Assembly: GCA_963662465.1 (NCBI GenBank)
Contig: OY759599.1
Span: 160,001 to 224,000, forward strand
DNA: 64,000 bases
Source of the DNA: Desulfatiglandales bacterium
GTDB taxonomy: Bacteria; Desulfobacterota; DSM-4660; Desulfatiglandales; Desulfatiglandaceae
Direction: 5' to 3'
Part shown: one piece after another, positions 1 to 12,762 of the stretch
Position numbering within the stretch: the stretch's first letter is position 1
Layout: each line of letters starts with the position of its first letter
Position numbers and translations under genes: made by a program
The notes under the pieces: generated by a model
The model's input: only the letters and a program-made list of their open reading frames with translations
What the model was told of the DNA's origin: nothing
Databases searched by the model: none

Positions 1-1
1 G

Positions 2-451
2 GATGAGCGAACACTCAAGGACAAATCTTGGCCGAAAAGCCCGAATAGTTTAAGCGGGCGTCTGAATAGAGCTTCGGTCTTTTTGGAACATGTGGGTATC
101 AAAATCACGGGGGGGAAAGCAGATAGCAAGCGGTTCATTTCCATCCAGAGAATCAGGGACGATATCAGGGACGATATTGACGATACATCACAAGTATCGT
201 CCACAGGATCGTCCCTGAATAACGTTTGTGGTTCCAATGGGTTGGACAATAGGGACGGTTTGGACGATAAAATACCCCTTCCTTCTGTTGAACAAGAGAA
301 AAAAAGAGAAGAAGGAGAGAGACAAATAGGGGAAAAAGAGAAAAAAGGGGCGAAGGTAAAGGGTAGGGAAAATATCGTCCAAACCGTCCAAACCGTCCAC
401 GGGCATTTCGATGAGGTTGATGTCCTCGAATATGAGGAGGTAATTATCTGA
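2..451 (+). CDS. 3' end of an island primase/helicase-type replication protein (partial, starts before the window)
   Basis: Frame is open from base 2 (DERTLKDKSWPKSPNSLSGRLNRASVFLEHVGIKI...). A WPKSP..LSGRL motif followed by a low-complexity tail (VQTVQT) resembles the C-termini of replication proteins of satellite-like islands. Confidence 0.6.
   Translation, partial: DERTLKDKSWPKSPNSLSGRLNRASVFLEHVGIKITGGKADSKRFISIQRIRDDIRDDIDDTSQVSSTGSSLNNVCGSNGLDNRDGLDDKIPLPSVEQEKKREEGERQIGEKEKKGAKVKGRENIVQTVQTVHGHFDEVDVLEYEEVII
152..398. repeat. Direct and inverted GGACGATA-type iterons inside the rep gene (putative origin)
   Basis: ATCAGGGACGAT x2 (152-175) with inverted copies at 195-218. Perfect 17-bp inverted pair GGACGGTTTGGACGATA (253-269) / TATCGTCCAAACCGTCC (373-389) flanks a purine-rich tract. 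Confidence 0.75.
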
Positions 452-810
452 TGTTGGCAATCAAAATATTGGAAGATTGCAAGGCTCAAGGCATTACCCT
501 TCAGGTGCTTGAAGAAGGTCAGTTAAAGATCAGGGCACCAAAAGGGAAAGCCGACGAAATCCTTTTGAGGTCTATCAAAGACCAGAAAAAGAACCTTATC
601 AGGATTTTGAAGGGCAGGGCTTTTTTTGAGCATCATTTGGACACGGCACTTGCTGAACTCAACCATCTTGGTATCTCCCCCATGGATTATCCAGCGAGTA
701 CAAGACAGAGGGCTTATTCGTTGGAAGGTAAAATTGATGCAGCTGCGAATATGGGTGAAAGGAATCTGTTCTTGGTTTTACTGAAACAATGGCGGGAGTG
801 CTTCAACTGA
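451..810 (+). CDS. Small island protein with a TubC-N-terminal-docking-like domain
   Basis: ILEDCKAQGITLQVLEEGQLKIRAPKG pattern; start overlaps the upstream stop; GAGGAGG RBS. Confidence 0.65.
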   Translation: MLAIKILEDCKAQGITLQVLEEGQLKIRAPKGKADEILLRSIKDQKKNLIRILKGRAFFEHHLDTALAELNHLGISPMDYPASTRQRAYSLEGKIDAAANMGERNLFLVLLKQWRECFN

Positions 811-1486: not shown

Positions 1487-2176
1487 TTAACTGGGGGAAA
1501 TCTGTTGAGCCCTTGCGCTATTTTCCCACTCTTCCGGGTCCGGAGCAGTTCCCGGCGATAACATGACTCCGAAGTTTCCGCTGTGTTCTATTTGCTGTCT
1601 TTCGACATACCCACGGTCTTTGAGCTGGGTCTTGCAAGCGAAAATGATGCTTTGCGTGTCACCGTTTGCGATGTTTTCCATCAGCTTATTTTCGATAAAA
1701 TCCTTTTTGGCTTCTTTTGCGTCTTTATATGCCTGCGCGAATTCCTTATCCTTCTTTTCCCAGTCCCTAAACCGGCTCCTGCTTATGCCGCAGGCCCTGC
1801 AAACCTCGCTGATATTGAATGATAGTTTATCGTATGCGTGCAGCCAGGCAGCTTGGAGCTTCCTTTTCTTTTCTTTATTTTTCTGCACCCTGCGGGCGAT
1901 GATATCGTTCTTTCGTTGTTTTTTTTCTTCTTCAGTTCCGGTTTGTCCGAACTTTTGTCCGGTGCTGCAGGGCCAGGTTTTGTGATTATGCCGCCTTACC
2001 GTTTCACACGTTTCTAGGAAGTCTATGTCCTCTTTTTTCCATCGTGCAACTTTCCTTAATGAAATTCCCAGATCTTGGCATGTGTCGGCTATGGTGATAC
2101 CGCCTGCACAGTATAGTTCAAGCCATTCCTGTTTCTGCTTGTCGTTTAGGATTTTTTGGTTATTTGTCATAGGCAT
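1487..2176 (-). CDS. Terminase small subunit-like protein with tandem HTH domains
   Basis: NISEVCRACGISRSRFRDWEKKDKEF and DFIENKLMENIANGDTQSIIFACKTQLKDRGYVERQQIEHSG resemble TerS-like HTH proteins; second HTH ITIADTCQDLGISLRKVARW; AGGAG RBS. Confidence 0.7.
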   Translation of the reverse strand: MPMTNNQKILNDKQKQEWLELYCAGGITIADTCQDLGISLRKVARWKKEDIDFLETCETVRRHNHKTWPCSTGQKFGQTGTEEEKKQRKNDIIARRVQKNKEKKRKLQAAWLHAYDKLSFNISEVCRACGISRSRFRDWEKKDKEFAQAYKDAKEAKKDFIENKLMENIANGDTQSIIFACKTQLKDRGYVERQQIEHSGNFGVMLSPGTAPDPEEWENSARAQQISPS

Positions 2177-2228
2177 TGGCTTTCTCCTGTTTGTTTGGTC
2201 AGTTATGCCCTTTTTTTAACCATAAATT

Positions 2229-2258
2229 AAATTTATGCAATTTTGCAAGCATAAATTT
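2229..2258. promoter_or_regulatory. Operator-like palindrome upstream of the TerS-like gene
   Basis: AAATTTATGC-N10-GCATAAATTT perfect 10-bp inverted repeat in an AT-rich promoter region. Confidence 0.5.
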
Positions 2259-2415
2259 TTCTTATGGGTCTGTTGCATCATTATAAATTATTTGCAAAAG
2301 CTGTTTTATGTTTATCCTGCGCCAGGAAATGCGTTGATCAATAGTGGAGCTGTGCCGCTTTGCCTCTTTTTTTGGGGGGATACTTTTCGTCGGTGTCTCG
2401 GACCCTACCTCTCCA

Positions 2416-2665
2416 GCGGCCTCCTGGGGTAACTCAGGCCGCGCGTTCGCTCTCCAGTTTGCAGTTTCGTTTTATATTGGCCGGCGCACGGCTCAACGTC
2501 CGCAGGGACTCAAAACTCAACCAGCCGAGCGCCTACATTGCGCTTGCTTGAAGCTGTGGGGCTATGGGTGTTCCATGGGGCCTACGGGTGGGCGTGTACG
2601 AGCGTGAATACCACTATCCTTCCATTTCAGAACCTATCCGCGCGCTTCGTACACGCTCACCCTTG
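2416..2665 (+). ncRNA. Structured RNA/ssDNA motif, copy A (unknown family)
   Basis: Shares ordered conserved blocks and hairpins with 3612-3934; G-T pairs form on the + strand. Confidence 0.5.
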
Positions 2666-2763
2666 TGTCGGAAAGGCATCTTAAGCGCGTTATTCGCAAA
2701 AAAGCCGCGAAAAACGCCATTAAAATGCTAAACCAATTTAATTAAGGGCCAAAACAGTGGAAG

Positions 2764-2842
2764 GCCCTCCACGGAGATCAACCTGGCATGCTCACTGCAA
2801 AAAAAGGGCAACGACCACGCCAGGTTGAACTCCATGAAGGGC
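2764..2842 (-). other. 35-bp imperfect hairpin favoured on the minus strand
   Basis: GCCCTCCACGGAGATCAACCTGGCATGCTCACTGC / GCAACGACCACGCCAGGTTGAACTCCATGAAGGGC; 5 of 7 mismatches are G-T pairs on the minus strand. Confidence 0.7.
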
Positions 2843-2983
2843 GATCAATCTAAATAAAACCCCTGGACGCCAGCTTTTTCCGCAAAATTTGCACTGAGAA
2901 TGGGAACAGTGGCACTGAAGGGATGGCGAACATGCGCGATAGAGCGGCAAGGGCGAATAGGCCCGGGGAAACGAGGGCAGCAA

Positions 2984-3140
2984 GGGCGGACAGGGGCGGT
3001 GACCAGCACCCCGTCGAGACGATGTTCAGGCGGATCAGTGGATAAACGAGTGATCAGCGGGCAAATACCGGGTGGCGCCGGGGCGGTGGTGGGCGAACCC
3101 GAGAGAACGGGCGGACAAGGGCAGTGACCAACACCTCGTC
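2984..3140 (+). repeat. 32-bp direct repeat pair
   Basis: GGGCGGACAGGGGCGGTGACCAGCACCCCGTC (2984-3015) vs GGGCGGACAAGGGCAGTGACCAACACCTCGTC (3109-3140), 28/32 identical. Confidence 0.85.
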
Positions 3141-3154
3141 AGGATGGTACTCAG

Positions 3155-3328
3155 GGGCAACCTGTGAGAATTTGGAGCAACCTATGAGAAACCAAGGGGC
3201 AACCTATGGGGATCGAGAGGGCAACCTCTTATTTTACTCATGGGCAACCTTTCATAATCCGTATTTTTACTCTGGGGCAACCTGTCATTTTATCCAGGGG
3301 CAACCTGTGAAAAACCCAAGAGCAACCC
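3155..3328 (+). repeat. Helically phased iteron array G(G/A)GCAACC(T/C) x8
   Basis: Units start at 3155, 3175, 3197, 3219, 3242, 3275, 3298, 3320 (spacing 20, 22, 22, 23, 33, 23, 22); one more copy near 3562. Confidence 0.9.
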
Positions 3329-3611
3329 ATTCCTTCCCGTCCCAAAACACCGAGGGGCCATAGACCTGGTGAGCAGAGCGCAAGGTTGGCCGCCTGTCCC
3401 AGGAATTGCAGAAGCTATCAGCTCGGGGCGAAGTGGCAATTCCTGGGTCAGCCATAATCTAATGCCCTTCGGGTTTCCCCGCCGGAGGCGTATAAGGAGG
3501 GGCCAAAGACGCGGCGCCGTTCCGGCTTGCAGGCCCATCTTTTTTTTAAGTGGGGAAAAAGGGGCAACCCGCCAGTCTCCAGCAACTCAATCTAAGCCCT
3601 TACGGGAAATT

Positions 3612-3934
3612 CCGTCCGGAGGCCGGTAACCCGCCGGAAGCGTATCAGGCCGCCCGAAGGCGGTCACAATTTGATTACATACCTTTGCAGCGATCTCTTT
3701 CCTTTTATGCACCAGCGCACGGCGGAACATCCTATATTTATTTCAACCTCAACCAGCCGAGCGCTTCCTCTTACAGGGTCTTAATCGGTGGGGCTATGGT
3801 CATTCCATGGAAACGCGGGTGGGCGCAAGGAGCCGCGCTCACCCTTGAGCCAATTTCGAAGTTCAGTATTTCATGGGCAGTCCTCATCCTTAACAACCAG
3901 TCGTCTACCCTGCTTCTGTTACGGCCTCCGGCGG
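3612..3934 (+). ncRNA. Structured RNA/ssDNA motif, copy B (unknown family)
   Basis: Same blocks as copy A; closed by long-range pairing CCGTCCGGAGGCCGGTAAC (3612-3630) with GTTACGGCCTCCGGCGG (3918-3934). Confidence 0.5.
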
Positions 3935-4290
3935 CCCGGTTCCGCGTTGTGCGCGGGTATGAGGAACTTTTCACCATTTTTCCCTATTGGCATGGTTTTT
4001 TGCAGTAAATGCCCGGCTGAAAAGAATGCCCGCATCGCAAAAACCATCGCCAATAGAAAAAAAGGAGAAAAGCTATTCAATAACACCCCTTTGCAGCAAC
4101 CTCTTTTTTCTCTTTATTATCCCTCACCCACATTCCAAGTGACCATCGAACCCTGGTTATCCGGATGTGTCTGCGGACAACAAACATACCAGGACCTTGC
4201 AATTATCCGTATTCTTTTGTCCCTCTGGTACTGGTTATGCGAGGACGTTTCAACTCAACTTTGAAGTTCGATACCAACACGACCGATCAT

Positions 4291-6088
4291 CAGCAATTCC
4301 CGGTCAAGAATTTACTCACAGAGTTTGAAAAACATATTTCAAAAACAAACCCTGAGATCAGATCCTTTTCAGAAAAATTGTATTAAATCCACTATTACCT
4401 CCCTCGATTTCTTGCAGGTTGAGCTTCTTTGACAAGAGTAAGAGCATAAAAGCACGAGTTAGGGCAGAGATATCCATTTCCGGAATCTCCAGTTTTTTAT
4501 TAATGAGAGCATTTTTGTATGCGAACTTGGGCATGACAAATTTAACCACTGTTATATAGAATAACTGGCGCTTGAAACTTTACGCCATAATAGAGGGCTT
4601 CATAGAGCATCCTCATCGATTTGAATTCAAAATCTCTAAACAAAGCTCTCATCCGTTCCCACAATTCCCTTTTTGAGCCGAGTTTATGCCATGCGGCTAT
4701 AAATAGAGGGCAACAAAGCTGTTGAGTTTGATCCACCAAGAATGCCAGCATCATGAGCATCGCAAAAACAACACTCAGATTCTTCTTGCCGAGCCCGTAG
4801 TTGTGTTCAAAATGATATCCTTGGTTCTTAAGAGTATTGAAGGTTTCATTTTCGATCTTCCATCTCGCACGGCCGCCTCGCATTAGCTGGTATGCATTGT
4901 CCTTTCCTATTAAAAAATCTGTCACCCAACTAAAATGTTTTGTTTTTTTCGGTGTAATTTCCCAATATTCCAGAAAGTTAACCAGCATATTCTTGTTAGA
5001 GGCATTGAGAGGTACCTGGTTAATAAATCGGAAACGATGTATTTTTTCCGGATCCTCTTTATCGACCAATTCGAATTCAGTGACGTCACCATTTATCCGC
5101 GCTTGTTCGACGTGATTAAACAAGAAATGGTGATCTCCTTTTTTAACTCCCAGAATATAATGAAAATTTTGCTTTTGTATTTCTTCAATGTGGGGTGCAT
5201 TCGAACTTAACGCGTCCTCTGTTATAATGATAGGCAGATGGGGATGCTCCTCTTTTAGCTTTTGCAAGAAACGTTTCGCGGCATTACGCTCACAGTCGTT
5301 CTTGCTTTGGCCATCCTGCTTGACTATGAATTCCGGAGCAAGCGGAATGACCTCTTTGAAATCCGGATGGACAATTGCTGCCCCCAACATCTGCTGATAA
5401 TAGGTTTTTTCGCCGGTTTTTTTCGATACTTTTACCAAACAACTATCAGAGGAAAGTTTCTTCGATGAGAAGAAACCCGTTCCATCCAAAGATAGAAGAT
5501 AACAACCTTCGAAAAATACCATACGTTCAAGCACCTTTCCCCTTTGCAGTTCCCAGAAGATATTCCTATACGGTTTCCGAAGTTCTTCTGCGAGCACTTC
5601 ATCAAGAATGGTGCGCATCGTACTGTCACATGGGATCTTTCCAATATGGTATATGTTCCCAAGATTACTATCGGTTTTTCTTCTTTCATCAAAGGCAAGC
5701 AACGATGGCTCCTTGAGCGAAAACATTGCAAACCCGGACATCAAGGCATCCGCAATAGTAATATCGGGATCCTCACGGCAGTCAGAGACTTCAGAAAAAT
5801 CTTTATGCAGACGCTTGAAAATTGCATCTGCATTAAGATGCTTGCGAACTCCAATCTTGCCTCTCTCTTTTCTTCCTTTTTGGCTTCTGATTCCCATAGG
5901 CAGTAATCATCGGCCAAGTTGATCTGAAAGTCCAGCTTTTTCTGAGAATTGCCAAAAAAATTCCTGTTTTATTTTAAAAATTGGAGAAAAAAGCCTTTTC
6001 AGGCTATTCATTCAACGTAAAGCTTTACGAAAAGGAAATGCCAAAAGGTACTGTCCTAGCGCCTTTAGAATCTAAGCGGGAATTGCTG
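4291..6088 (-). mobile_element. Complete insertion sequence (ISNCY/IS4-superfamily DDE type)
   Basis: Terminal inverted repeats CAGCAATTCCCG / CGGGAATTGCTG; 9-bp target duplication ACCGATCAT (4282-4290, 6089-6097). Confidence 0.92.
4542..5897 (-). CDS. DDE transposase
   Basis: LSLDGTG, IITEDAL and RARWKIENETFNTLKNQGYHFEHNYG motifs. Confidence 0.92.
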   Translation of the reverse strand: MGIRSQKGRKERGKIGVRKHLNADAIFKRLHKDFSEVSDCREDPDITIADALMSGFAMFSLKEPSLLAFDERRKTDSNLGNIYHIGKIPCDSTMRTILDEVLAEELRKPYRNIFWELQRGKVLERMVFFEGCYLLSLDGTGFFSSKKLSSDSCLVKVSKKTGEKTYYQQMLGAAIVHPDFKEVIPLAPEFIVKQDGQSKNDCERNAAKRFLQKLKEEHPHLPIIITEDALSSNAPHIEEIQKQNFHYILGVKKGDHHFLFNHVEQARINGDVTEFELVDKEDPEKIHRFRFINQVPLNASNKNMLVNFLEYWEITPKKTKHFSWVTDFLIGKDNAYQLMRGGRARWKIENETFNTLKNQGYHFEHNYGLGKKNLSVVFAMLMMLAFLVDQTQQLCCPLFIAAWHKLGSKRELWERMRALFRDFEFKSMRMLYEALYYGVKFQAPVILYNSG

Positions 6089-6096
6089 ACCGATCA

Positions 6097-6414
6097 TTAA
6101 CCCAAAACTGCCGACAGTACCTTGAATGCCAGCTTCAGTTGTTCGGTATCCGCTTGATCCAGGAGAGACGTTATTATGAACTTCCTTTCCACGGGATCTT
6201 CGATTTGAATAAAGCCGAAGATTTCACCCAGATCCACTCCCAATGATTCCGAGAGCTTTATCAAGGTATTAAGGGTCGGATTTTCATTTCCCCTCTCAAT
6301 GCTGCTAAGATATTTCGGGTTGATTTCCATTTTTTCAGACAATTGTTCCTGTGTAAGTCCTTTCTTGTTCCTGACCTCCTTTATTCGTGCCCCGATCATC
6401 TGTTTTTTATCCAC
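6097..6414 (-). CDS. XRE-family HTH transcriptional regulator
   Basis: IGARIKEVRNKKGLTQEQLSEKMEINPKYLSSIERGNENPTLNTLIKLS; likely GTG start at 6414 after GGGGAG (start uncertain). Confidence 0.9.
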   Translation of the reverse strand: MDKKQMIGARIKEVRNKKGLTQEQLSEKMEINPKYLSSIERGNENPTLNTLIKLSESLGVDLGEIFGFIQIEDPVERKFIITSLLDQADTEQLKLAFKVLSAVLG

Positions 6415-6491
6415 GGCCTTTAACTCCCCGTCATTTTTGATTTTTCTAATTGTGACAGAGAGCAAGCCAGTTAAAAACAGCCCCACACACG

Positions 6492-6529
6492 GAATATGTT
6501 TGACATATTCTTGGTGTGAGACTTAGGAT
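6492..6529 (+). promoter_or_regulatory. Sigma70-like promoter with overlapping operator
   Basis: TTGACA (6500-6505)-N18-TAGGAT (6524-6529); palindrome GAATATGT-TTG-ACATATTC (6492-6510) covers the -35. Confidence 0.6.
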
Positions 6530-6605
6530 TCAACTTGTCAGATGGAATTTTGGGTGTATTTGATGTCCTGTGGATGGAACATCTATCTTTCCATTATGGA
6601 AGTGA

Positions 6606-7076
6606 ATGAAAATAGATCAGATAAGGGGATATTTGGTGAAATACTTAATATACCTATTCGGTGCGCTGATTTTAGTTCTGCTTACGCCCACAGTAAACGT
6701 GGAAAAGTTACACTATGAAAAGTGGTATCAAGTTACGCTCAGAGCAAACGGAAAAAAGTTGCACTATGAAAAATGGTATCAGGAGAGATGGTGTAAGGCG
6801 AATGGTGGACAGATGGAAGTGGTATTTCCGGACAAAACCCGATGTGATTGTTTGACGAACACTCACGCCATTGAATTTGATTTTGGAAAAAAATGGGCTG
6901 AATCTATCGGCCAGGCGCTTTACTATTCGATCCAGACGGGAAAAAGGGCAGGGGTAGTACTCATACTGGAAAAACCGGGTGATTATAAATATTGGATTCG
7001 ATTAAATACCATTATTGAGCATTTCAGTTTGCCCATTGACACATGGAAAACAGCGCCACCGGGCGGTCTTGATTGA
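6606..7076 (+). CDS. Protein with N-terminal hydrophobic segment and a PD-(D/E)XK-like domain
   Basis: TM/signal YLIYLFGALILVLL; PDKTRCDCL..HAIEFDF..WAESIGQALYY pattern; internal duplication KLHYEKWYQ x2. Confidence 0.55.
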   Translation: MKIDQIRGYLVKYLIYLFGALILVLLTPTVNVEKLHYEKWYQVTLRANGKKLHYEKWYQERWCKANGGQMEVVFPDKTRCDCLTNTHAIEFDFGKKWAESIGQALYYSIQTGKRAGVVLILEKPGDYKYWIRLNTIIEHFSLPIDTWKTAPPGGLD

Positions 7077-8424: not shown

Positions 8425-11140
8425 TTACCATTTTTCAAGCAGGACGCCTTTTTTCTCCATTTCGTTCAAGACAACGGAACAGCTATCCCAGTCAAAATCC
8501 GCCACCCGGTTGTATTTTTCATCAAAGGGGTGTTTGGGGTGAACGGATTTTATCAGCTTTTTGGCTTCATCGATTTCTCCGTTGGCCACATCGATCCAGA
8601 CATCCTCCAGGATATCCGGAATCTGGCCGAATAGCCCGAAGATGTCTTCCAGACGGCTTGACAAAAGATCGTGGACGCGGTCTTCCACAGATCCCTTGTA
8701 GCGCATGTTGTAAACATAGATTTCATCGCGCACCTGGCCGATACGTTGGATACGGCCTTTTCTCTGTTCCAGCCGCGTGGGATTCCATGGAAGGTCAAGG
8801 TTGATGAGAGTCCCTAACCGTTGCAGGTTCAATCCTTCACTTGCTGCGTCCGTGCCAAGGAGCAGGCGGAGTTCGCTTCTTCCCACCTTCTGCTTTATTT
8901 CATCCCGTGACGTCCGCTTGAATTCTCCATTTCGTATGATCCCTGAATTTCCACCCCCGGCATAAACCCCGATGGCCTCTTCCGGAAGGTCTGCGGAAAG
9001 CTGCTGCGCCAGCCACCAGATGGAATCGAAATACTGCGAAAAGACGATGCAGCCCAATTCAAGCCAGCCTTTGGAGACCAGATAGTCGAATACCTTTTGA
9101 TATTTCGGATCACGATCCTGATTGGCTTCGAGGGCCTTGAGGCAGCGATTCAGTTCATCCCTTTCTACTGCGGTAAGGTCCTTCATGCTGCCACCAGGAG
9201 TCTCATGATGAAACGCGGCGTCATCATCTTCTTCAAAAAGGTCGGCATTGATGATCCTGCTTTCATCGCCCCACTCGGTCAGCATCTTCTCGGTTGTCTG
9301 CCTTCCTGCGTATATGGTACTCCCGATCCTTCTCAGAAGCAGGGTTTTCAGAAATCCGGCTCCTTTGGCCCTCCGGCTCAACAGGGTGCAAAACGTCTCG
9401 GCTGCCTGGTAGGCGTCATTCCGATACGGCGGCAAAGGGACGGCATCGTCCGGATCTTCACCAAAGAGTCTCACTCTTACGGGCTTGAGATAAGGTTCTC
9501 CGGTGGCCGGATCGATGGTCTCCTCAAGAAACTGCCGGGTTCTTCTGACAATGTGGCGAATAAACGGATTGTGCTCTCTCCCAAATCCAGGAATCACACT
9601 CCTGAGACGCGTAATTTCGGGCGGACGCAGACGTTCCAGGCTGTCGCCATCGGCAACCGGGTCGTCATCTGCAAGCCCTAATTTTTTTCCTAAGATTCTT
9701 GAAAGCAATCCCTTCAGACGCGGGGGGCATTGGGTTTCGAATCCATCGCCAGGCATCCCCCAGTTCCCCGGGGATGTCCGTTTCGCCCATCACTACGGGG
9801 ATAGCCTTGTCCGGTTTGCTCCATTCGCTCCATTCCGTTCCTAACACCCTGTCATTACCTTTTGCCAGGATACGGAGGAGGTCCCAGGCCTCGATGGGAT
9901 GAAGCTGAACCGGGGTTGCGGTTGCCAGAAGGAGGCTCTTAGTGCGGTGGCTGATCTCCCACAAAAATCGCATCAGGTTGTTGGGGTCGGCCTTTTCATA
10001 AACGCTCTGAGGGTTGACCTTGCGTCGCCGCGCCCGGTGGGCCTCATCCACAATCACGCATTCAAACCGCATGCTCTTGAGGTACTCCACAATTTCAGAA
10101 CCCGACGTGATGAGCCCCTGAGAAATGATCCCCACCTTCCTGGGACATTTTCGGATGGATTCCGGGCCGTGTGCGGGATGAACGATTCCCTGTTCATCGA
10201 TCCATTCTTTCCCTGTCCAGACTGCTGAAGGCATGCCCAACAGATCAATCAATTCGTCCTGCCACTGCAAGGTAAGGGATTTCGGAACAATGATCAGGCA
10301 GGGCCTTTCTCCATGAAGGGCCATCAGCATGGCGCTCAAGGCCAGTTGAATGGTTTTACCCAGCCCCACCTGGTCAGCCAGTACAAAGCGTGCACCCCCC
10401 TGCAAATGAGCATCGTAGGCCAGTTTGATGAAATACTTCTGATGTGCCCACAGACCGTATTCTTTTCGATAGACCGGCGTTTCCACGGCCCCCGAGGCCG
10501 GATCGCTTTCGGGATCATCCTTCCAGTCAACAACCGAAATTTCCCGTCGATTGGCCAGACGCTGAATGTCGGATACCACAAAATCACTCAGTGGGATCGC
10601 CGCAGGATGAAACCAGAGCGCGTTAAATTCCTCCTCTACCCATTTTATGGCTTCTTCGGAATCATCCTCCCACACCAGTTCATAGTTGAGCTTCCATGCG
10701 GAGAGGCTTTCGTTGGTGCTCCCCATAAAGCTGGTCTTCCGGCCATTTGCATATCCAATAATTCCTGCCTTCCCATGAATGAGCCCAAAGGCTTGATCCG
10801 GCAGAACCTTGACCGCCATCTTTCCGGAAATCAGCAGATCATAGAGACGCTGAAACCGTTCTTTGGTGTTTGCAGGGAGTTTTTCCGGTTCACCCCCGCA
10901 CCATGATTTGCGCAAGGCTTGCTGGGCGGCCTTGGCAGTCAGTACATCCCGTTCGTCAATATCGGAATTGCAGACCACCCGGATCTTTCCATTCAGATTC
11001 TCCAGGTGTTCACCGGCGATTTCAAGGAGGGATGAGCGAAAATATCCGGCAATCCGGTCGTAGGATACCGCGCCTTTTAGACGCTCATGGATAAAGGAGG
11101 CATCGAGGTTCTGCCGTCTGGAGGAAAATCGTTGAATCAT
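8425..11140 (-). pseudogene. PLD-nuclease + SNF2 helicase anti-phage protein, frameshifted at ~9685
   Basis: IHGKAG/GSTNES PLD motif, LADQVGLGKT, VDEAH, TATP, SEGLNLQ, LEQRKGRIQRIGQ. The two ORFs join across an A7 run (LRKK|LGLADDD). Confidence 0.88.
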
Positions 11141-11154
11141 TCCGCGTCATCCTT

Positions 11155-12762
11155 CTACAGTATCCCGGCATGATCGTTTGCCACGGCTCCGGCCAACCTT
11201 TGAGCAGCATCTGCATCCTTTTCCCAGTGGGGCATGTGGGTAATGTGGGACAAAGCGGCCAGGTAATTGAGTACGGCTACGATCTGTTTGCGCTGCTGCC
11301 AGTAGGTGGGCACTTCCTCCCGCAGCCAGTTCAACCCCTGCCGGGCGTCGTCGGTACGAACCGTCTCGTGGATGGCAAAGAGGATGTTGCGCAAAGGGGT
11401 GCCGCCGAATTCCCCATTTCCCAAAACGGTTTTCTTGAACTCGGACCTGGTTTTGAAACGGACCGCATTGGCTTTGGCCTGGGGTAGAGTCCAGTATAAT
11501 CCTTCACCCCAAATCCCTTGGCCAGCTCCTGATAGGCCCCGGCCCGCGCCTCCATGTTTTTCTCTAATTCCAGTCCTTTCAGATACAGCCGTTCCGGGGC
11601 CGCCAGGGTTTTCCAGTATCGGGTCTCCAGCCCTTTTGGAACAAGATGATCCGAAGCGATCTCCACGGCCCGGTTGATGACCTGCTCAAATGCAGATGGC
11701 TCTCCGGCCTGCTTGTGCCGGAACAGCTCATGGCGGATGTCATGCCCTTCAATATCACTGTAGCTGGTGAGCACTCGAAGGGCCGCCGCATAGGCTGCCA
11801 ACTGATAATCGGTATCTGCAAAATTGGGATCTTCTTTGTCATCCAGGGCCAACATCTGGTCCAGTTGACGGCGGACTTCATCTTCGATTTCAGGGTAGAG
11901 TTCATCGAGGAAGGCGGTATCGCTTGCAGTGCGTTTACGGAGGATGAGGAGGACTGTGCCCTGAACGTAGTTGCCCTGTTTCAGACCTGATGTGGTTTCT
12001 GTTCCGATGGTCCACGCGGCTGTCACCCTGAGACCTGCAGCCCAGAGGATCATTGCCAGATCGGCCCAGACAGAGGCATCCTGGTGGGTGAACATAACGA
12101 GCTGGAGACCATTATCTGGCATATGGTTGGTGAGGTTGGTATAGGATTCAACCATAGCGCGTTTGAAATCACCACCGGAACCTCGAATAGCTAATGCTTT
12201 TTTGGTGTCCGTGTACCAGTTTGGGAAGGCTCTGGGAAGATGTTTTTCGTACCACGCGAGAAAGAAATCCGTCAATTCATGATAATTGATAGCATCCGCG
12301 TAAGGGGGGTCTGTAATCCAAAGATGACTATTCCCTCCCACAATCCTGGCGTCATCTAACTCAATTGTAATCTTTGTGTGGATCGGATAATCAGGAATAT
12401 TTTTACACCAAAGATTGTTCGTCTGTGAAAGTCCACGTGTTCCGAAATTATAGAGAGTGTTAAAGGCTTGATTTGAGAATACTTGTTGTACCATATCTCG
12501 ACTTGAATCCAGCCGAGATAACCTGCAATCCCAATCGTTGACCCTTGAGCCAGCCAACAAACCATAAACGAATTGCGCCATATTATTGGATTGAGCTCTC
12601 GTCAATAATAGCCCATGCATCAGCAACTGCCTCGGATTAAACAAATGATGCCAATGGGTCCAGCCCCTTGTTCTGATGGGCTCCTCTGTTTTATCTCCAC
12701 CACGTTCAATCACTCGACTCGGAATAAACCCCTTCTCCTGCCACTCTGAAAACCGTTCCCTC
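11155..12762 (-). pseudogene. DUF1156 adenine methyltransferase of the restriction-like system, 5'-truncated and frameshifted at ~11484
   Basis: ITDPPYADAINYHEL motif; RGWTHWHHLFNPRQLL; C-terminus continues in another frame (QAKANAVRFKT…); the N-terminal half is missing. Confidence 0.85.

Follow-up and report, generated by a model that had tools for sequence, protein, structure and literature searches.

A hairpin-rich, gene-free array with two copies of an unclassified conserved motif in a PICI-like island of a Desulfatiglandales bacterium

The window analyzed here, a stretch of 64,000 nucleotides from contig OY759599.1 of a Desulfatiglandales bacterium, opens inside an island with the gene order arm-binding tyrosine integrase, AlpA, Zn-ribbon/Toprim primase, TubC_N protein and terminase small subunit-like (terS-like) gene. 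Beyond the terS-like gene lie 2.1 kb of gene-free DNA, an insertion sequence (IS), an XRE gene, a 156-aa gene, a toxin–antitoxin pair and SNF2/PLD and methylase-like genes. The gene-free DNA carries two copies, A and B, of a motif with stems P1, P3 and P4, along with a series of imperfect hairpins, many of a recurrent type that we call H. The features, in window coordinates, are as follows.

1..451, + strand: 3′ end of the primase gene (702 aa, Zn-ribbon/Toprim); the gene begins ahead of the window, with integrase and AlpA further upstream
451..810, + strand: gene for a 119-aa TubC_N-domain protein (PF18563)
1487..2176, − strand: terS-like gene (phrog_4044, E 2.8e-19), reading away from the array
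2483..2533, + strand: stem P1 of copy A, with invariant 9-nt arms, an A·A mismatch, a closing G–C pair and a loop ending in the conserved AACCAGCC
2533..2578, + strand: second linker of copy A, variable and hairpin-forming by inspection (folded in other copies), and P3 (2562–2578)
2586..2662, + strand: long hairpin P4 of copy A, a 16-bp stem with one G·T on the + strand and an extended inner stem
2676..2728, unstranded: H-like imperfect hairpin with shortened arms and an A-rich loop ending in AGCC
2764..2842, − strand: H-type hairpin, a 35-bp imperfect stem with five A·C on the + strand (G·T on the − strand) and GG-N10-GC spacing in both arms
2979..3155, + strand: two 52-nt direct repeats, 125 nt apart
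3148..3330, + strand: iteron-like repeats with a GGGCAACC core, irregularly spaced, at this locus only
3394..3451, unstranded: H-like 16-bp hairpin closed by TTGC/GCAA
3490..3648, + strand: segment common to both sister arrays (84% and 91% identity)
3644..3700, + strand: small hairpin Z and, after it, repeat X; each recurs several times within the sister arrays
3714..3810, + strand: copy B core, with P1 at 3714–3765 (closing A–T pair), a variable linker and P3 at 3794–3810
3817..3844, + strand: P4 of copy B, a 10-bp stem with one G·T and an 8-nt purine-rich loop of H type
3960..4079, − strand: long imperfect hairpin with TGGC...TGC arms and 11-nt spacing
4078..4105, + strand: further copy of repeat X, with no core after it
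4291..6088, − strand: multi-copy DDE insertion sequence, inserted after the array and absent at the corresponding place in the sister locus
6097..7076, both strands: XRE repressor gene (−) and 156-aa gene (+), the module that forms the boundary of the array; one sister locus and G122, a genome of another genus, have the same boundary

Two smaller segments flank the terS-like gene. Positions 1282–1388 are non-coding, contain a hairpin and match part of a related island of genome G004 at 88% identity; the 50-nt segment at 2288–2337 has 14 further copies in the genome and is probably the remnant of an IS end.

The island has an integrase, AlpA, a primase/replication gene and a packaging-related gene and lacks capsid genes, a combination that marks a PICI-like element. 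No att repeats were found when they were sought for the window's own island, where an IS interrupts the 5′ side of the integrase. Three further loci in the genome carry the motif. At 7.73 Mb, tRNA-Arg att repeats enclose the sister locus, a 24-kb island that carries an integrase, DUF3987 genes and comparable cargo. Two copies of the motif and the XRE module are found at 1.576 Mb, where the array has neither integrase nor primase beside it. The copy at 592 kb (592431) stands alone: its core is perfect, and neither an array nor a replication gene is close to it. The four loci share one replichore and one orientation, for which the chance with four loci is 1 in 8. Set against PICI-like satellites as outlined in the available part of PMC6739421, the island shares the integrase, AlpA, primase and TerS-like genes, with non-coding DNA and then accessory cargo after them, and the sister island also lies between tRNA-Arg att repeats; it differs in having no known helper phage and in its hairpin array, of which no counterpart was described in the literature found. 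The defense-type operon of SNF2/PLD helicase and methylase-like genes occurs in both islands (window 8425–12713; genome 7734779–7744428), and that of the window is split and IS-laden.

A profile search locates six copies of the A/B motif in the 8.16-Mb genome, all on the + strand, starting at genome coordinates 162484 (A), 163715 (B), 592431, 1576237, 1577515 and 7730316. These copies score 67–102 bits, and the next best place in the genome scores 12. They are 61–80% identical to one another, apart from one pair of B copies at 97%. Over five lineages, the arms of P1 (2 × 9 nt) are 100% invariant, whereas the linkers are ~50% alike; the loop word preceding the 3′ arm of P1 and the unpaired CTCAACCA are each ~90% conserved. 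Invariant runs of 12 and 9 columns were reached in none of 100,000 column shuffles. Because invariant arms sit beside linkers that are ~50% alike, the sequence must be under selection. The A/B element is a real, selected, non-coding and unclassified motif of the island, and A and B mark the two ends of a more extensive array of hairpins, which the preliminary description of this DNA had overlooked.

The preliminary description had listed eight sequence blocks shared by A and B, and all eight lie where it placed them, as do the closing pairs G2483–C2533 in A and A3714–T3765 in B. Its statement that the linkers keep their length applies to the later linkers (23/24, 23/23 and 3/3 nt) and fails for the two upstream ones (15 versus 30 and 19 versus 24 nt). 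The block at 3645, which it assigned to copy B, is part of a small hairpin of its own, found ~280 nt away from copy B in the sister loci. The partial third start that it suspected exists as an X-type restart near 4083. Between the copies it saw an iteron array, and GGGCAACC-type repeats are indeed present (eight cores at 3155–3320, plus one at 3562) but are absent from the two sister arrays. A decayed coding sequence, named there as an alternative, is excluded by alignment of two sister arrays, which share 1,179 nt at 83% identity: the counts of substitutions by frame position are 83, 78 and 77, and 11 of the 16 gaps span 1 nt. With no codon pattern and gaps mostly of 1 nt, the array region is not a decayed gene. 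By inspection, no conserved small frame of the kind expected of a type I toxin is present. BLAST gave no match to the genome's introns that would point to a group II intron remnant.

The structural argument is weaker than first proposed. Covariation between the paired blocks had been claimed, with structure selected over sequence. In the alignment of six sequences, however, eight of the nine P1 pairs never change, and the covariation score is matched by 149 of 500 shuffles; the stem arms are conserved in sequence itself. The closing pair alone changes on both sides (three G–C and three A–U), probably in a single event. Half of the copies have a broken or altered P3, and the G–T pair said to be retained in the CTATGG/CCATGG stem is kept as U–G in three of six copies, changed in one and broken in two. 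P4 is variable: its loop is 8 nt in one copy, as against a 57-nt extended stem in another, and a third copy has a 27-bp stem. The notion of a scaffold with variable guide segments fares no better, as the linkers have no convincing target in the genome, phages or plasmids and the second linker is a hairpin in itself. Ten linkers compared with the genome at up to four mismatches matched themselves, sister copies and two chance places only, and the phage and plasmid collections gave no target; other places in the genome that resemble the B linker are coding sequence. The linkers drift and are not exchanged like guides. What stands of the original proposal, a functional RNA or a folded single-stranded DNA signal, is a selected, non-coding, structured island element, and of the two options folded single-stranded DNA fits the wider context better.

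The absence of a known family also stands. The window gave no Rfam hits, and five loci gave only generic hairpin hits far below gathering scores. The A/B core was found in none of 60 relatives by BLAST and, by covariance model, in none of 150 genomes of the order and 150 of the phylum; five chosen genomes yielded one hit at E 0.77, and five loci searched without filters yielded none. Core patterns matched 10 places in GTDB genomes and one viral sequence, all GC-rich, coding-like and due to chance. A further viral pattern scan returned 81 matches, 80 of which were retrieved, and the best score over both sets was 16 bits, compared with 67–102 for true copies. Metagenome pattern scans produced 0 and 22 matches, all chance, and a shared 22-mer had no viral match. 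A sister array compared with 208 genomes of the class gave six matches, none within the core. Neighboring genes led no further: TerS relatives occur in 2 of 208 genomes (three loci, core absent), with no viral relative found; relatives of the 156-aa gene occur in 5 of 208 genomes and at 11 viral loci, all without the core; and relatives of a 104-aa gene that adjoins one motif copy, found in 13 of 400 genomes, have no core upstream. The 104-aa protein (locus L014:11841-12155) has no Pfam match and 954 close relatives, mostly of exactly 100–104 aa, and is island cargo untied to the motif. So far the A/B core has been seen in a single genome, which narrows what can be claimed for it; its link to single-stranded DNA therefore rests on its neighbors.

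Those neighbors form a gene-free array of 1.7–3 kb, with long imperfect hairpins of 16–35 bp between and around A and B. Strong hairpins number 9, 7 and 5 per 2 kb in the three arrays of this genome, where the genome-wide mean is ~0.27; by hairpin density these arrays rank 1, 3 and 4–5 in the genome, rank 2 being an unrelated tandem repeat. The H design consists of a left arm ending in TGC, a purine-rich loop that often ends in AGCC and is 4–33 nt long, and a right arm GCA-N7-CGCCA with a kept A·C mismatch. The P1 loop ends in the H loop word, and P4 loops are of H type, by a pattern defined after inspection. Counts of A·C versus G·T on the + strand are 9/1 in the window array, 14/3 in one sister, 5/5 in the other and 7/6 in G122. 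H stems prefer the − strand in the first two of these, whereas P3 and P4 prefer the +.

Spacing of the form GG-N10-GC is that of the sigma-54 consensus. Arms with this spacing number four in 630 nt of one array, compared with 0.17 per kb per strand, and the genome encodes sigma-54. On the − strand, several H arms have the spacing, whereas others have 8 or 11 nt, and five of the six A/B copies lack it. A matrix built from 17 H hairpins outside this genome places four island hairpins in the genome's top five, with that at window 2782 second; this ranking is partly circular, since the pattern used to retrieve H was derived from the islands being ranked.

Outside this genome, the closest parallel is G122, where integrase, primase, hairpin array, XRE gene and 156-aa gene follow one another in the same order and one clear H is present, in an array inverted relative to the primase. 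The H pattern matches 5 of 104 genomes of the family, two of the five matches not being hairpins, and a reversed control pattern gives two matches. In genome G012, H is the terminal stem of an attC site, and in G021 that of a decayed attC. Six viral contigs contain the pattern, four of them with H 0.4–1.2 kb upstream of terminase genes and in the same orientation as relative to terS in the window; two of these four are related (similar terL). Of the remaining two, one has H near restriction-modification genes and the other before unannotated genes. C-GNA-G mini-hairpins lie nearly all on one strand in the H arrays of four of the six viral contigs and of G122 (16/3, 5/0, 16/0, 18/1 and 8/1), and that strand is the one favored by H, with region limits set by eye. 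The counts in the three arrays of this genome are 3/4, 3/3 and 2/2. Collections of named phages and plasmids yielded no useful match to H, and 14 other primase-related island regions, some on short contigs, contain neither the A/B core nor an H array.

Hairpins also occur at several other loci. Near position 6000 of the oriented loci, L232, L233, L234, L236 and L237 are gene-poor over 1–2 kb and rich in hairpins and in mini-hairpins on one strand; at four of these loci the stretch precedes terminase genes. In G003:C23 (L115:12470-12560), two hairpins upstream of a related terS contain GCGAAGC mini-hairpin words, on the strand opposite terS. The end of a contig in a congener (G001:C327:1-400; L199) carries Z-like and H-like hairpins, possibly a related array that has been broken off. 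In a study that may have used the source sample, one low-depth DNA contig connects 2579 with 3492 and 3538 with 6864, weakly suggesting that another organism carries a related array.

We tentatively favor, as the leading reading though somewhat short of a probable one, that the array is a cis-acting region of folded single-stranded DNA signals used in replication or packaging of the island, probably for priming. The excised island would become single-stranded during replication or packaging, and the imperfect palindromes would then fold and withstand coating by single-strand-binding protein, so presenting stems with mismatches and conserved loop words to a protein. The reader would most likely be a primase, of the island or the host, or RNA polymerase starting second-strand synthesis. 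In A and B, the recognition site may be the invariant stem with its A·A/T·T mismatch and loop word, and the variable hairpins may serve as spacers. The protein, the strand and the step are all inferred.

Three links lead to this reading. The invariant arms imply sequence-specific recognition; inserts that vary yet remain self-complementary imply folding of a single strand rather than double-stranded sites at fixed spacing; and the occurrence of H in attC sites and beside mini-hairpins of DNA type favors a folded single-stranded DNA signal. In the available part of PMC5027507, attC sites are described as functioning as folded single-stranded DNA, with a skew of G·T pairs to one strand as one of their traits, and in that of PMC13037366, C-GNA-G mini-hairpins are far more stable as DNA than as RNA and occur at single-stranded DNA priming sites. 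Support also comes from the hairpin density of the three arrays, from the skew to A·C on the + strand in two of them, from the match of the P1 loop word to the loops of other array hairpins and from the G122 array, which occupies the same place between primase and XRE genes. Counting against it, the mini-hairpin skew is missing from this genome's own arrays and the A·C skew from one sister and G122; the strand preference of P3 and P4 is the reverse of that of H; G122 has its array in inverted orientation; 592431 has neither array nor replication gene nearby; one array has no adjacent integrase or primase; and the 14 other primase-related island regions lack both core and H array.

It is also possible, though rather unlikely, that A and B are + strand non-coding RNAs of ~110–240 nt whose core stem and loop are invariant and whose peripheral hairpins vary, and which serve the island in trans; if RNAs, they constitute a new family. 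The + strand folds better than the − strand as RNA in five of six cores, with folding z-scores of −2.07 (A) and −1.49 (B) on the + strand against −1.27 and +1.01 on the −; the P4 G·T is kept in all five copies that have P4, the unpaired residues CTCAACCA are conserved, and the stand-alone copy retains its core without array or replication genes. The z-scores are modest, however, covariation does not exceed that of shuffled alignments and Rfam offers no match; promoters and terminators around the copies are not above chance, and the loop words are common to neighboring hairpins that favor the opposite strand. We consider unlikely an explanation in which the palindromes are double-stranded protein sites (pac/cos-like packaging sites, TerS or repressor sites, or sigma-54-type late promoters directed toward terS) and the inverted 9-mers of A and B, 31–32 nt apart, form a dimer site. 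Such sequence-specific binding would fit the invariance of the 9-mers, the iteron-like repeats between A and B, the position and orientation of H upstream of terminase genes in four of six viral contigs, and the GG-N10-GC arms in a genome that encodes sigma-54. The range of H loop lengths fits it poorly, as do the arms with 8- or 11-nt spacing, the occurrence of H within attC sites distant from packaging genes, the absence of terS from two arrays here and from G122 and the relatedness of two of the four terminase-linked contigs.

As H forms the terminal stem in the attC-type sites of G012 and G021, the array could instead be a relic, of decayed integron attC sites or of REP-like palindromes that gathered in the island, with A and B alike through recent duplication. 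We regard this as highly improbable. The genome has five integron integrases over the cut-off, repeat X resembles, by eye, the 5′ part of the genome's attC sites, the one-strand G·T skew is an attC trait in the available part of PMC5027507, and one pair of B copies is nearly identical. But drift cannot yield invariant arms beside linkers that are half alike, no cassette genes lie between the hairpins, and the motif has six copies only, with no GTAG/GGAG-headed REP layout on inspection. Cores of the form RYYYAAC/GTTRRRY closing a stable fold were found in none of the four loci on either strand; the same scripts found two to five attC-like sites elsewhere in the genome, so the sensitivity of this test is limited. 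With attC sites as described in the same part of PMC5027507, the array shares imperfect palindromes and the H stem itself; a skew of G·T pairs to one strand is seen in two of the three arrays, and the A/B stems lean the other way. Unlike attC sites, the array lacks an R″/R′ core pair, L boxes with extrahelical bases and cassette genes, and no integron integrase lies beside it.

A folded single-stranded DNA signal invites comparison with known systems. The ssi and sso elements (ssiA/ssiB of RSF1010, the G4 origin and rolling-circle sso), which we compared by layout rather than by sequence from the available parts of PMC13037366 and PMC2440964, share with the array imperfect hairpins in a gene-free region of a primase-encoding mobile element and repeats between two conserved signals. 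They differ in that A and B lie on the same strand, the arrays of this genome have no mini-hairpin skew and no rolling-circle Rep was seen in the islands. Hairpin origins are known in integrative elements, again from part of PMC2440964. Repeat X of one sister copy (L014:12194-12200) begins with CTTGAT, which the same part of PMC2440964 gives as the pC194-type nick word; the other X copies begin with TTTGAT or differ, and no rolling-circle Rep was seen.

Frpo elements, judged from the available part of PMC11541004, also comprise several folded elements in non-coding DNA of mobile elements beside defense-type cargo. Unlike them, A and B have no sigma-70 −35/−10 pair, no relaxase or oriT was seen beside the arrays, and the array arms are sigma-54-like if anything. 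A scan of 2100–4400 for −35/−10 pairs gave two promoter-like sites, where 1.8 are expected, and none in A or B. By this −35/−10 test, A and B are not Frpo. Retron msr-msd, as defined in the available part of PMC6868368, shares the order of an AGC word, short stems and then a long variable hairpin. It differs in that no reverse transcriptase (RT) lies near any copy (none of 47 RT matches in the genome is near one) and flanking complementary repeats common to all copies are absent; on the absence of an RT we reject a retron RNA.

Cis signals for the replication and packaging of phage satellites are known in few elements. The literature covered, with most subscription papers outside its scope, contained no description of such arrays, of H or of a sigma-54-like hairpin signal. 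A broader version of the folded-DNA reading, which we think quite unlikely, would make H an undescribed and widespread signal read by a host protein and common to phage pre-terminase regions, satellites and attC sites. The stem would present a sigma-54-type −24/−12 duplex with the fork right after the −12 GC, and would serve sigma-54 polymerase as a promoter on single-stranded DNA, a source of primers or a decoy, with A and B as a specialized member. If H is common to satellites, phage packaging regions and attC sites, this would point to a shared host factor for folded single-stranded DNA and would offer a short, testable substrate.

Two other elements of the genome are recorded here as separate observations. 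At 1480060–1482580, about 12 non-coding units of 203 bp stand in tandem, each with a 20-bp imperfect palindrome. A diversity-generating retroelement occupies 403200–408000, with its RT at 404573, an adenine-rich template near 404248–404384 and Lcl_C targets. Remote target-like genes lie at 591520–592131, 300 nt before one motif copy, and at ~7189000; a tie between motif and retroelement was considered and rejected, since the other copies do not follow such a gene.
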